DNA from: a virus
Taxonomy: Duplodnaviria; Heunggongvirae; Uroviricota; Caudoviricetes
IMG/VR virus record: IMGVR_UViG_2531839479_000006
DNA: 25,652 nucleotides
Direction: 5' to 3' (one strand)
Below, one piece after another: positions 3,973 through 17,867 of the stretch. Under the pieces are notes generated by a model. That model searched no databases. It was not told the DNA's origin and worked only from the letters and a program-made list of their open reading frames with translations. Numbering within the stretch: the first letter of the stretch is position 1; each line of letters begins with the position of its first letter. A program made the position numbers and the translations under genes.

Positions 3973-4176
3973 TTACGGCGCTGTTTTAAGTCCTGCCGGG
4001 ATTTCGTTATTATCCATGTGAATAACTTTATCGACCGGATAGCAGTTACCGGGAATTTTTTGTTCTGCTGCGGCAGCCATGCATTCTTTCATTGAACCGT
4101 AAATGTCAATAACCATGTCAACAGGCTCGCCAGTATTAAGAAAAACAGTCAGAGTGAGGGCAATAGCAGTATTCAT
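3973..4176 (-). CDS. Small hydrophobic-N-terminus protein, 67 aa, in the position of ydfD in dicB operons
   Basis: Internal Met with AAGGA 8 nt upstream; N-terminus MNTAIALTLTVFL is signal/TM-like. Its ATG overlaps the dicB stop by 4 nt. The six-frame ORF extends to 4230 without a ribosome binding site. Confidence 0.5.
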   Translation of the reverse strand: MNTAIALTLTVFLNTGEPVDMVIDIYGSMKECMAAAAEQKIPGNCYPVDKVIHMDNNEIPAGLKTAP

Positions 4177-4361
4177 TGCCAGTATCCTTTTTGCATCGGG
4201 CGTAAACGTGCCAGCATTGAAAGAATGCATATTTTATTTAATAGCTCCCGTTCGTATTTTCTCTTATTAATGGCATCTTCAGTAAATACTGGGTTACTGA
4301 TAGTGACACCAATTTCAAAACAACCTTCAGACGTATTGACGTTTGGTAATAACGTTTCCAT
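4173..4361 (-). CDS. dicB: Cell division inhibitor DicB homologue, 62 aa
   Basis: 62-aa ORF METLLPNVNTSEGCFEIGVTISNPVFTEDAINKRK...LARLRPMQKGYWQ closely matches E. coli DicB as I recall it, and has the same length. GAGGA sits 7 nt upstream of the ATG. The six-frame ORF (4173-4457) has an unsupported N-terminal extension. Confidence 0.65.
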   Translation of the reverse strand: METLLPNVNTSEGCFEIGVTISNPVFTEDAINKRKYERELLNKICILSMLARLRPMQKGYWQ

Positions 4362-4540
4362 TATCGCGTCCTCAACAATGAATTTTGTGATGCGGTGCCT
4401 GGTGCCTCCAGGTGACGTTAACCAGTTAATAATTAACGCCGGATACAGAGAACCCACCCATAAGAACCAATACGGAAGTCAACTGGCCTTTTTAACTGTT
4501 CCGCGTGCGCTGAGCCGCATTCACCGCATCACAAAATTCA

Positions 4541-4605
4541 CTTTAAAAGGGGCGGGTATCATGGGAAAAACAAAACGGATACCCGCCAAAAGGTAATCAA
4601 CATGG
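4541..4605 (-). ncRNA. dicF: DicF-like small RNA candidate with 3' hairpin
   Basis: Minus-strand reading UUUUGGCGGGUAUCCGUUUUGU...GAUACCCGCCCCUUUU. The core resembles E. coli DicF (UUUGGCGGUAUCAGUUUUAC...CCGCCC, from memory). A 10-bp GC-rich stem followed by a short U-run ends about 180 nt upstream of dicB. Exact ends are not determinable by eye. Confidence 0.4.
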
Positions 4606-5151
4606 GTTGTTGCAGCGGGGTTGTCACTCAGGCGTATGGTCAACCTGACAACCCGGTGGACATTTGCGAGGAACGGAGAACCCCCGCCATACTTACCGCC
4701 GCGCCATTTCGCGGAGTGCCACAACCGGAAGCGCACGGTCGACGAAAATTTAACGACAGGCTATCTATGAACCAGCAACCTCGCCGTGCGCTTTCGCGTT
4801 ATGCTCTGACTTTTCAGAGAAATATCCTTTCAGTAAACTGTCAGTGCCGGATGCTCACCCGTGTCCGGCGCACACACTCCACCTCACCCGTGGAGAACTC
4901 CTTAATTACCAACCCTCAGGAGGGTGAATGTTAAAATCAACGCTTATTGCTAAATGCCTTTATCAAAATCGCATGGTAAGCAGCATTTCAATAGGCGAAT
5001 CTGCAGTTAAAAGTATTTTCGAAGAGTACTTTCGAAGAGTACTTTTCTGGGCGTGATTTTAATAAATGGAATACCAAATTACCGCCAGCAGTTTCAACGC
5101 GTATTCTGAAAGCAACTGAAAGAGCAAGTACAATTCGCGTTAACTATTTCA

Positions 5152-5559
5152 TTAAAGATTTGTGGGGTCTTTGATATCCACAGAGCCTAAAGTATGTGCA
5201 TATGGATGTGCTATTGTGCGCCCCTGTAAATTTGCATCGTTTTCTAAATCTTTTGATTTCAACAGAACATCAGCAAGACTCTGAATCATGCAGAGATAAT
5301 CAAAAACAGTTGCCGTTTCTGTTCTGACTGCTGAAATAACATGACCATTCAGGCAAACAGAAATTACCCGTTCATCAATATCGTTTTCCTGTTTTTGATT
5401 ATCAGAACAATATAGCCCTGAAAAAGCATTGCGCACATTACGAACCATATTATCGATGGTTTCTTTTTTGGTGTATGCCGGGTCAATTTTCACCAGACTA
5501 TCACCGAGTGTCGTTGCAGCAATTATCTGGATTTCTTTTGGTAAATCTTTAAATTCCAT
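5152..5559 (-). CDS. Hypothetical protein, 135 aa, leftward early operon
   Basis: Clean ORF with GAGG 7 nt upstream of the ATG. Same strand and tight spacing with the flanking leftward genes. No family recognised. Confidence 0.55.
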   Translation of the reverse strand: MEFKDLPKEIQIIAATTLGDSLVKIDPAYTKKETIDNMVRNVRNAFSGLYCSDNQKQENDIDERVISVCLNGHVISAVRTETATVFDYLCMIQSLADVLLKSKDLENDANLQGRTIAHPYAHTLGSVDIKDPTNL

Positions 5560-13074: not shown

Positions 13075-13230
13075 TAGTTAAACACACTACCGCTGTAGAG
13101 TTGTTGTCATTAAATTGCGTCATAAGTAGAATTGCTGCGGGTGCTTGAGGCTATCTGTCTCAGGCATGAACACCAAAAGGCAGATAGAGAAAAGCCCCAC
13201 CCGACTATAAATCGAAGTGAGGCCAGTCTT

Positions 13231-13437
13231 ATGTCTCGACAACTGAAGATTAGCCTCTTACGTGCCGAAAGGCAAGGAGAAGCAGGCTATGAAGCAGCAA
13301 AAGGCGATGTTAATCGCCCTGATCGTCATCTGTTTAACCGTCATAGTGACGGCACTGATAACGAGGAAAGACCTCTGCGAGGTACGAATCCGAACCGGCC
13401 AGACGGAGGTCGCTGTCTTCACAGCTTACGAACCTGA
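13231..13437 (+). CDS. mok: Mok-like overlapping reading frame of the hok locus
   Basis: ORF starting MSRQLK with GAAGTGAGG upstream, overlapping hok in another frame as in hok/sok loci. Confidence 0.45.
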   Translation: MSRQLKISLLRAERQGEAGYEAAKGDVNRPDRHLFNRHSDGTDNEERPLRGTNPNRPDGGRCLHSLRT

Positions 13438-13444
13438 GGAGTAA
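13289..13444 (+). CDS. hok: Hok/Gef-family type I toxin, 51 aa
   Basis: MKQQKAMLIALIVICLTVIVTALITRKDLCEVRIRTGQTEVAVFTAYEPEE is near-identical to the Hok/HokD family sequence as I recall it. AGGAGA 8 nt upstream. Confidence 0.85.
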   Translation: MKQQKAMLIALIVICLTVIVTALITRKDLCEVRIRTGQTEVAVFTAYEPEE

Positions 13445-17617: not shown

Positions 17618-17693
17618 GGCCCTTTAGCTCAGTGGTGAGAGCGAGCGACTCATAATCGCCAGGTCGCTGGTTCAAATCCAGCAAGGGCCACCA
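17618..17693 (+). tRNA. tRNA with CAU anticodon, Ile2-like (lysidine type)
   Basis: Cloverleaf folded by hand: acceptor GGCCCTT/AAGGGCC, D-arm GCTC/GAGC, anticodon loop CTCATAA, T-loop TTCAAAT, CCA encoded. Close to E. coli ileX as I recall it. Confidence 0.85.
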
Positions 17694-17700
17694 TCACATA

Positions 17701-17777
17701 CCGCCATTAGCTCATCAGGATAGAGCGCCAGCCTTCGAAGCTGGTTGCGCGGGGTTCGAGTCCTCGATGGCGGTCCA
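17701..17777 (+). tRNA. tRNA-Arg (anticodon UCG)
   Basis: Acceptor CCGCCAT/ATGGCGG (C1-G72), D-arm GCTC/GAGC, anticodon stem CCAGC/GCTGG with loop CTTCGAA, T-loop TTCGAGT, CCA encoded. Confidence 0.75.
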
Positions 17778-17790
17778 TTATCTGTACCCT

Positions 17791-17867
17791 GCGTTGTTAG
17801 CTCAGCCGGACAGAGCAATTGCCTTCTAAGCAATCGGTCACTGGTTCGAATCCAGTACAACGCGCCA
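17791..17867 (+). tRNA. tRNA-Arg (anticodon UCU)
   Basis: Acceptor GCGTTGT/ACAACGC, anticodon stem ATTGC/GCAAT with loop CTTCTAA, T-loop TTCGAAT, CCA encoded. Confidence 0.85.

Follow-up and report, generated by a model that had tools for sequence, protein, structure and literature searches.

The dicF slot of the lambdoid prophage analysed here holds a variant hairpin allele that the Rfam DicF model does not recognise, and the stretch between this slot and dicB is bracketed by a perfect 19-bp inverted repeat predicted to close a structured RNA domain related to STnc100. The window (the whole 25,652-nucleotide stretch of Caudoviricetes record IMGVR_UViG_2531839479_000006) carries these elements on its minus strand. 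We favour a reading in which an attenuator occupies the dicF slot, an STnc100-like domain that is cut by RNase III stands ahead of dicB, and the slot RNA is not a repressor of ftsZ; we assign this reading a probability of about 0.72.

In the proposed mechanism, the operon would be transcribed leftward, as its synteny suggests, and some transcripts would end at 4545-4548, as the K-12 literature describes for this position. The slot most likely acts as an attenuator, with such partial termination limiting read-through into toxic dicB. In the read-through RNA, a 21-bp duplex is predicted to close a 124-nt STnc100-like domain, the inner helices of which covary, and a flanking CCUU is predicted to pair with the dicB Shine-Dalgarno sequence. 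RNase III, which is known to act on the K-12 homologue, would then cut both strands in the middle of the duplex. This double cut would separate the upstream RNA from the dicB-ydfD mRNA, excise a piece of ~144 nt and leave dicB with a leader of ~25 nt and, by prediction, an exposed Shine-Dalgarno sequence. The DicB made from this mRNA would act on division, as it does according to the K-12 literature.

The locus and its inverted repeat

Judged by its sequence, the segment lies on the minus strand in the early-left operon of a lambdoid prophage and forms the intercistronic dicF-dicB spacer there, because it is colinear with ydfC-dicF-dicB of phage Tritos and of Qin in E. coli K-12. Both references align colinearly with this region of the window at ~88% identity, and the DicF annotated in phage Tritos falls at the aligned position. 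Synteny with the K-12 Qin prophage covers ydfC-dicF-dicB-ydfD, and the operon order in the window is DUF1391/ydfA, ydfB, ydfC, an extra ORF, the dicF slot, dicB, DUF1482/ydfD and an exonuclease. The dicB coding sequence (4173..4361, minus strand) encodes 62 aa and matches Pfam DicB (PF05358) with 130.5 bits. On its 3' side follow a DUF1482/YdfD-like protein and an 824-aa exonuclease with an Rv2179c-like domain, and 5' of the slot lie YdfC-, YdfB- and DUF1391/YdfA-like ORFs and an S24/HTH repressor; Pfam confirmed DicB, DUF1482, DUF1391 and the S24 repressor.

An 801-nt query around the locus is 100% identical to a prophage of E. coli strain 602354 (human stool, Bangladesh), and the RefSeq record of that prophage annotates dicB and no RNA gene. 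Related sequence was found in 4727 of 5426 complete E. coli genomes. A scan of genome contigs returned 7 dicB loci, all Escherichia/Shigella plus one probably mis-binned MAG, with no distant homologues among them.

Scanning the minus strand between 4100 and 5200 for sigma-70-like promoters found none, which is consistent with an RNA that is processed out of the operon transcript. Coding readings of the spacer were considered and rejected. A 94-aa GTG ORF (4173..4457) extends dicB upstream in frame; ORFs of 71 aa and 123 aa overlap the hairpin. All were considered spurious: dicB has its own Shine-Dalgarno sequence and AUG, the full-length Pfam match covers its 62 aa, and none of these ORFs is annotated in the identical RefSeq record.

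The initial annotation had described a perfect 19-bp inverted repeat (4379-4397 and 4522-4540) enclosing 124 nt, and sequence, shuffled controls and predicted folding all bear this out. On the minus strand, the arms UGAAUUUUGUGAUGCGGUG (4540-4522) and CACCGCAUCACAAAAUUCA (4397-4379) are 100% complementary over 19 nt and lie 124 nt apart, with AAAG between the UUUU tract (4548-4545) and the 5' arm. Two further pairs, G4541·U4378 and A4542-U4377, lengthen the minus-strand stem to 21 bp, and the full 5' and 3' arms occupy 4522..4542 and 4377..4397, respectively. Apart from one short palindrome, no other inverted repeat of 17 nt or longer occurs within a 400-nt span anywhere in the window. When the window was shuffled 100 times with its dinucleotides preserved, the longest perfect repeat per shuffle came to 10-15 nt, as against the 19 nt observed. 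The minimum-free-energy structure that RNAfold gives for 4375-4544 (minus strand) is a multibranch domain closed by the arm duplex (-71.5 kcal/mol, z = -5.9), and none of 200 shuffles reached this stability; the fold of a 256-nt region gave z = -5.4.

A perfect repeat is not peculiar to the window: across 89 related loci, all 19 pairs are Watson-Crick in 41, one is G·U in 28 and two are G·U in 11. One mismatch occurs in 9 loci and more than one in 0. Counted as individual cells over the 89 loci, the duplex holds 50 G·U pairs versus 9 mismatches. Since a G·U pair in one RNA strand corresponds to C·A on the other strand and in DNA, this excess points to a constraint on the dicB-sense RNA.

We rejected a repeat that acts at the level of DNA on the basis of this strand-specific G·U pattern and of the covariation described below. 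Two loci could be cited for such an element, be it an operator, a site of recombination or a pair of mobile-element ends: one (L019) keeps 17 nt of the 5' arm beside foreign sequence, at a recombination junction, and the other (L047), with a recombination junction nearby, lacks the 5' half of the domain. Yet arms that tolerate G·U pairs and rarely mismatches, an inner helix that covaries with a related RNA family, and a position inside a transcribed leader for which later papers cite an RNase III product in K-12 make a DNA element extremely improbable.

Taken alone, the arms of the dicB leaders hardly vary: six types of variant create a wobble and four create a mismatch. On these sequences, the dicB-leader set by itself is uninformative, as it holds too little variation for real covariation. 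The outer 10 bp in particular are almost invariant and therefore count as conserved, without support from covariation.

The hairpin in the dicF slot

The allele in the slot (4545..4605, minus strand) is placed by synteny with K-12 dicF and consists of the 5' flank CAUGUUGAUUACCUUUU, a hairpin and a U-tract. A minus-strand hairpin with a U-run upstream of dicB had been reported in the initial annotation and is indeed present: GGCGGGUAUC (4587-4578) pairs perfectly with GAUACCCGCC (4560-4551) in a 10-bp stem, and CC and then UUUU (4548-4545) follow. This intrinsic-terminator-like hairpin (4551..4587, minus strand) has a U-rich loop of 17 nt, folds with -17.2 kcal/mol and is preceded on the minus strand by a short A/U-rich stretch. 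A simple consensus terminator scan did not call it because the 17-nt loop exceeds the limit of the scan. As the GC-rich stem is followed by a CC spacer and only four U, the efficiency of termination is uncertain. Most simply, the slot hairpin is a partial terminator or attenuator before dicB.

The same element had been called a DicF-like sRNA. This holds for its position in the dicF slot and for its terminator-like shape, and it fails for family membership. The search with the Rfam DicF model (RF00039), which had been named beforehand as the test of the claim, gave no match at E<=10 in 4300-4750 and none at E<=0.1 window-wide, as against 76.7 bits for the K-12 DicF control and a gathering score of 48 bits.

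Comparison with K-12 DicF locates both what is shared and what has been replaced. The two elements occupy the same ydfC-dicB position in the same operon, end in a GC-rich hairpin with a U-tract and have an 18-20-nt stretch over the 5' arm of the hairpin in common. The 5' seed UUUCUGGUGACG of K-12, however, gives way in the window to a AUGUUGAUUACC-like sequence (~6/12 positions identical, or a gap in the MAFFT alignment), and the K-12 loop AGUUUUACUCC, which pairs with the ftsZ ribosome-binding site, gives way to the U-rich loop. Whereas the K-12 stem is interrupted, that of the window is perfect over its 10 bp, and the K-12 precursor hairpin that presents an RNase E site is absent from the window. 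Both replaced parts are contact regions in DicF, which reaches ftsZ through its 3'/loop part and xylR and pykA through its 5' end (PMC5069750).

Pairing with the ftsZ initiation region was predicted for both alleles. RNAduplex gave -38.5 kcal/mol for K-12 DicF, with 7.7% of shuffles as good, and -24.6 kcal/mol for the window allele, with 64% of shuffles as good. Because shuffling destroys the hairpin of the sRNA itself, shuffles are an imperfect control for the sRNA-ftsZ cofold, and we used the contrast between alleles instead: the cofold gain is -11.1 kcal/mol for K-12 DicF and -1.8 kcal/mol for the window allele, the hairpin of which stays closed. These models predict that the slot RNA does not target ftsZ. 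With the predicted pairing lost, filamentation through ftsZ repression by the window RNA is not expected; DicB itself would still cause filamentation.

We consider it very unlikely that the hairpin RNA is a functional member of the DicF family, that is, an sRNA of ~55 nt that pairs with ftsZ mRNA and blocks division. Its place in the dicF slot, its terminator-like hairpin end and the stretch UUUGGCGG(G)UAUC(C/A)GUUUU held in common with DicF would all suit such a role, as would a 7-bp GAGAAAC/GUUUUUC match to the ftsZ leader drawn by eye, but the RF00039 search at E<=10 stayed without a match, the xylR/pykA 5' seed and the ftsZ loop (PMC5069750) are both replaced, and the predicted ftsZ duplex is no better than shuffles, with the small cofold gain given above. 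In addition, loop indels separate the window allele from its closest class (B and B', below), unlike what a conserved seed would show. The failure of the DicF model, the exchange of seed and loop and the lost ftsZ pairing thus indicate a diverged occupant of the slot rather than a DicF family member. The slot RNA may be an sRNA with other targets.

To place the window allele among its relatives, the slot was extracted from 88 dicB loci, which fall into discrete allele classes. Class A is canonical (Rfam DicF 76.7 bits). Class B, the window allele, and class B', which is B with loop indels, have no Rfam DicF match at E<=1. Class C combines the canonical 5' end with a different hairpin (43.5 bits, gathering score 48), class D a B-like 5' flank with the canonical hairpin (61.1 bits), and class E the canonical 5' end with a short hairpin, again with no match at E<=1. 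The 5' seed and the loop are thus exchanged as modules between classes, and the GC-rich stem and U-tract are kept in every class via compensating changes.

Identity between the slot of the window and those of the other classes is 60-64%, as against 83-95% for the leader upstream of it, the domain downstream and dicB; the exception is the dicB of an Escherichia albertii locus (L090; 77.8%). The slot is the least conserved stretch, of 60-70 nt, within a strongly conserved 570-nt leader. A search with 68 allele-specific bases identified 158 carriers of B or B' among 5426 complete E. coli genomes (~3%). These alleles almost never lie under an annotated feature; among the matches listed, two overlap a 'hypothetical protein'. 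The B-type allele, its non-DicF status, its prevalence and its missing annotation appear undescribed in the literature searched, a scope outside which the 1994 dicF-related survey falls.

RNase III processing and the dicB ribosome-binding site

The inverted repeat had been proposed as a likely RNase III processing structure. Homology and published K-12 data support this claim, which is already in the literature and not new. In K-12, DicF has two 3' ends, that of a 53-nt form made by termination and that of a 72-nt form made by RNase III on the full-length operon mRNA (Faubladier 1990, as cited in PMC5069750 and PMC9438474). On MG1655 coordinates, dicF occupies 1649382-1649434 and the 5' arm of the duplex 1649444-1649462. 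The 72-nt end, as those citing papers give it, corresponds to 1649453, which is position 10 of the 5' arm and lies mid-duplex; with a sizing error of ±5 nt, it would still fall within the arm. Gordon 2017 (PMC5371410) lists an rnc-dependent site at 1649470, described as 'intergenic dicF-dicB' and flagged 'known', with no reads in either wild-type replicate as against 26 in the rnc mutant, at coarse resolution. In a 2023 study of the operon, RNase III was placed at the 5' end of a 190-nt species; the 72-nt product was not discussed there.

The same duplex, the 72-nt end and the rnc site in K-12 thus support the RNase III reading by homology, and the RNase III dependence of the window allele is carried over from K-12. 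The arms of the window align base for base with the K-12 arm that holds the 72-nt DicF end. In each arm 17/19 positions are identical, and the two loci enclose the same predicted fold at the same distance to the dicB ribosome-binding site. They differ in two pairs of the duplex, U15·G and G16·U in K-12 versus C-G and G-C in the window, and in a variable hairpin of the enclosed domain that is 14 nt longer in the window.

RNase III accommodates ~22 bp, its cuts leave a 2-nt 3' overhang, and in vivo it prefers at least one G-C among the two pairs between the cuts (PMC6212723). The 21 bp of continuous dsRNA in the window agree with the length of ~20-22 bp that the enzyme takes. By homology with K-12, a cut is predicted at 4531|4530 in the 5' arm, and from the 2-nt overhang rule and the K-12 72-nt end we infer a staggered cut at 4387|4386 in the 3' arm. 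The pairs between these predicted cuts are G-C and U-A, fitting the in vivo rule.

Early polycistronic transcripts of phages carry RNase III signals such as the lambda N-leader site and T7 R1.1-type sites. Likened by description, these also place a long duplex between cistrons, where cutting uncouples upstream and downstream RNAs and can alter downstream translation. They are simple hairpins with an internal loop, whereas the duplex in the window closes a large, conserved multi-hairpin domain.

As the initial annotation had noted, the repeat ends just upstream of the dicB ribosome-binding site: GAGG lies 5 nt past the 3' arm, in the minus-strand order UUGUU, GAGG, ACGCGAUA, AUG. The translation-initiation region of dicB spans 4359..4373 (minus strand), with the Shine-Dalgarno sequence GAGG at 4373-4370 and AUG at 4361-4359. 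Before the leader is processed, this GAGG is predicted to pair with the CCUU (4547..4550, minus strand) that directly follows the terminator stem on its 3' side, in a helix that adjoins the long duplex. For the full leader, the predicted probability that the Shine-Dalgarno sequence is unpaired does not exceed 3% in the window and 6% in K-12; in a processed mRNA predicted to begin at 4386, the last three bases of the sequence are 85-98% unpaired.

We hypothesise on these models that the RNase III cut unmasks the dicB Shine-Dalgarno sequence. The predicted sequestration involves a 4-bp helix, and the upstream tail could stay annealed to the leader after the cut. Translational control, which had been offered as the alternative to processing, is kept here as a hypothesis founded on the predicted Shine-Dalgarno pairing through those four base pairs.

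Masking of this kind could also operate with the duplex left uncut, as a structural insulator or translational repressor from which DicB synthesis would require unfolding. Although the near-complete pairing of the Shine-Dalgarno sequence in the full leaders of the window and K-12 (at most 3-6% unpaired) and the stacking of its helix beside the 21-bp stem would fit, K-12 has RNase III-dependent ends and rnc-dependent read accumulation at this site, as far as the cited reports describe them, and a perfect duplex of 21 bp comes close to an ideal substrate for RNase III. An uncut duplex is quite unlikely to be the working state.

The enclosed domain and its STnc100 relatives

The 124-nt domain inside the duplex (4398..4521, minus strand) comprises three or four hairpins, among them P4 (4440-4414, minus strand) and P5 (CCUGG-AGGCA-CCAGG, 4412-4398, minus strand). 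Rfam gave a single other signal, a match to STnc100 (RF02076) at 4384-4538 (minus strand) with 33.5 bits (local E = 1.1e-5; 6e-4 for the window against all families). This falls short of the gathering score, 47, and makes the domain a sub-threshold relative of the STnc100 core. The match recurs in 6/6 loci tested, covering classes A to E, with 28.5-38.7 bits.

Canonical STnc100 copies were taken from viral contigs, and 18 of their cores were aligned jointly with 16 dicB leaders. In this joint alignment, pairing reaches 92.8% over the inner 9 bp of the closing helix, where four consecutive pairs are changed on both sides (A-U/G-C, U-A/C-G, G-C/A-U and C-G/U-A). It is 94.5% for P4, in which both sides of six pairs have changed, and 100% for P5, which has one compensatory change; the total over the alignment is 12 pairs changed on both sides. 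Slid controls, in which partners were shifted by 1-3 columns, were 34-38% paired. The covariation score was 0.379, as against 0.04-0.09 for slid partners, and 0/500 shuffles reached it, with the caveat that the set consists of essentially two clades and that the structure was derived from the same sequences. Support for covariation of the helix comes only from this comparison with STnc100 because the dicB leaders alone are uninformative. The outer 10 bp, UGAAUUUUGU/ACAAAAUUCA, are present only in dicB leaders and absent from canonical STnc100.

STnc100 is related to PasD sRNAs; both are prophage sRNAs, and PasD binds Hfq (bioRxiv 10.64898/2026.05.13.724894). With this family the domain has in common the closing helix GNNNGGUG/CACCNNNC, the invariant GUGAAU junction, the P4 hairpin and the 3' module UCACC-NGG-AGGCA-CCNGG-CACC, and it differs in the register of the first hairpin. 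Canonical STnc100 stands alone, sometimes in tandem, with an upstream promoter-like TTGACT...TGTTAAAAG and a downstream terminator, whereas the domain in the window has neither of its own. The canonical copies also belong to the late region, close to Q, stx and lysis genes, in contrast to the early-left operon that holds the window domain. Our reading of these sequences is that the dicB leader holds an STnc100-type core, the closing helix of which appears to have been lengthened into an RNase III substrate.

A put-like processive antiterminator of the HK022 type was also considered, prompted by the two adjacent stem-loops at the end of the domain, and dropped. An Rfam E-value scan of the immunity and put region of HK022 (27600-30100), a weak test, gave no STnc100 match, and the domain lies downstream of the terminator that it would need to overcome.

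The enclosed domain might itself be the product, an STnc100/PasD-like RNA of ~144 nt that is excised by RNase III and acts in trans, for example via Hfq. The STnc100 match in 6/6 loci, with E = 1.1e-5 locally, invites this idea, as do helices common with STnc100 that carry compensatory changes, the invariant GUGAAU, UCACC and GGAGGCACC, and the report of STnc100 and PasD as prophage sRNAs, PasD being Hfq-bound (bioRxiv 10.64898/2026.05.13.724894). The score nevertheless lies under the Rfam gathering threshold, and STnc100 itself is without an established function. K-12 reads at the site appear only in the rnc mutant and are absent in wild type, which suggests that the piece is degraded, and the promoter-like sequence and terminator of canonical copies are missing from the copy in the window. 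We regard a trans-acting excised RNA as unlikely. It is not exclusive of the favoured reading.

A broader and more speculative view would take the whole spacer as a modular RNA cassette, in which a hypervariable slot between conserved RNase E/III processing flanks, where prophages exchange sRNA seeds, yields a functionally distinct 'DicF-B' sRNA and RNase III excises an STnc100/PasD-type core; we hold this to be unlikely. The 'DicF-B' sRNA would then have non-ftsZ targets, the core would be a converted stand-alone gene, and the same cut would turn on dicB translation. If true, such a cassette would tie the leader of a cell-division toxin to an sRNA family that is widespread in prophages, and would add a rare example of a bacterial sRNA released through RNase III excision.

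DicF and DicB are the textbook examples of prophage-encoded inhibitors of division in E. coli, and DicF has further effects on metabolism and EHEC virulence. The architecture of the dicB leader and the role of RNase III at its duplex are already known, and the findings on the dicF-slot variant do not overturn current understanding; the STnc100 relationship and the masking of the Shine-Dalgarno sequence are new but modest leads. For annotation, the consequence is that Rfam-based methods miss a whole class of dicF-slot alleles (those of 158/5426 complete genomes). Where a genome is scored as 'dicB present, dicF absent', its slot may hold a different RNA, and counts of functional DicF copies in pathogens should go per allele class.

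A variable slot on a fixed processing scaffold also amounts to a natural experiment in sRNA seed replacement. The duplex, the predicted Shine-Dalgarno masking and the STnc100-like core together would offer a handle on the way in which a toxic prophage gene can be silent and still inducible, and also a first functional handle on the uncharacterised STnc100/PasD family.

A variable dicF slot within a conserved leader

When we compared the dicF slot, the minus-strand position upstream of dicB (4545-4612), with dicB-type loci L001-L090, the 5' flanks fell into two types and the hairpins into four or more. Recombinant alleles were also present among these loci, such as class D, which joins a 5' flank like that of the window's own B allele to a canonical hairpin. 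The 570-nt non-coding leader around the slot is strongly conserved outside it. On this sequence comparison, the dicF slot appears to behave as a hypervariable modular cassette. In the B allele the stem is a perfect 10-bp palindrome, and one possible origin is the correction of the imperfect canonical stem by template switching. We also observed a dicF-dicB locus of E. coli type, with canonical DicF, on a contig assigned to a metagenome-assembled genome of Veillonella parvula (L085, JAGZPX010000007.1); this contig is probably a binning contaminant.

Within the loop of the main hairpin, a terminator scan uncovered a weak hairpin of 5 bp (4574-4587, minus strand), in which GGCGG/CCGUU precedes UUGUUUUU. 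The slot RNA may fold in this other way, or may terminate early here.

Upstream, the 330-nt leader (4606-4935) shares ~91% identity with E. coli K-12 across the 219 nt adjoining the slot, and its predicted fold showed a modest gain over shuffles (z = -1.7). It contains an imperfect minus-strand hairpin, CGAAAGCGCACGG...CCGUGCGCUUCCG (4726-4796), which precedes the end of the terminator by ~190 nt. A second RNase III site has been published for this operon, at the 5' end of a 190-nt DicF species (PMC10448788), and the hairpin matches this site by position.

Neighbouring and distant loci in the window

An inserted 135-aa ORF (5152-5559, minus strand) separates the ydfC-like gene from the long leader; it is missing in K-12 Qin, is annotated as 'hypothetical' in an identical RefSeq record and had no Pfam match. 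Further along, on the plus strand, a hok/sok-type toxin-antitoxin locus (13139-13444) combines an Rfam sok match (13139-13294, 122 bits) with a 50-aa Hok-like ORF (MKQQKAMLIALIVICLTVIV...) ending at 13444. A cluster of three plus-strand tRNA genes, Met(CAT), Arg(TCG) and Arg(TCT) (17618-17867), shows an arrangement that lambdoid phages of the Stx type typically have in their late region.

STnc100 units and natural arm variants

Canonical STnc100 occurs in tandem at loci L095 (2977-3365 plus neighbouring sequence) and L117, with two to three copies within ~500 nt; no canonical copy reached threshold in the whole window. Each tandem unit is preceded by a promoter-like block, CTCACAATTCA...TTGAC, which resembles the ACAAAAUUCA end of the 3' arm in the dicB leader.

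Two viral contigs carry altered versions of the inverted-repeat arms that close the STnc100-like domain upstream of dicB. In L019, unrelated sequence stands in place of the dicF slot and also of the 5' arm's first 2 nt. L047 has other sequence instead of the domain's 5' half, so that the inverted repeat cannot form; it retains intact hairpins P4 and P5, 3' arm and dicB. Together, L019 and L047 could be used as natural 'arm-minus' controls.
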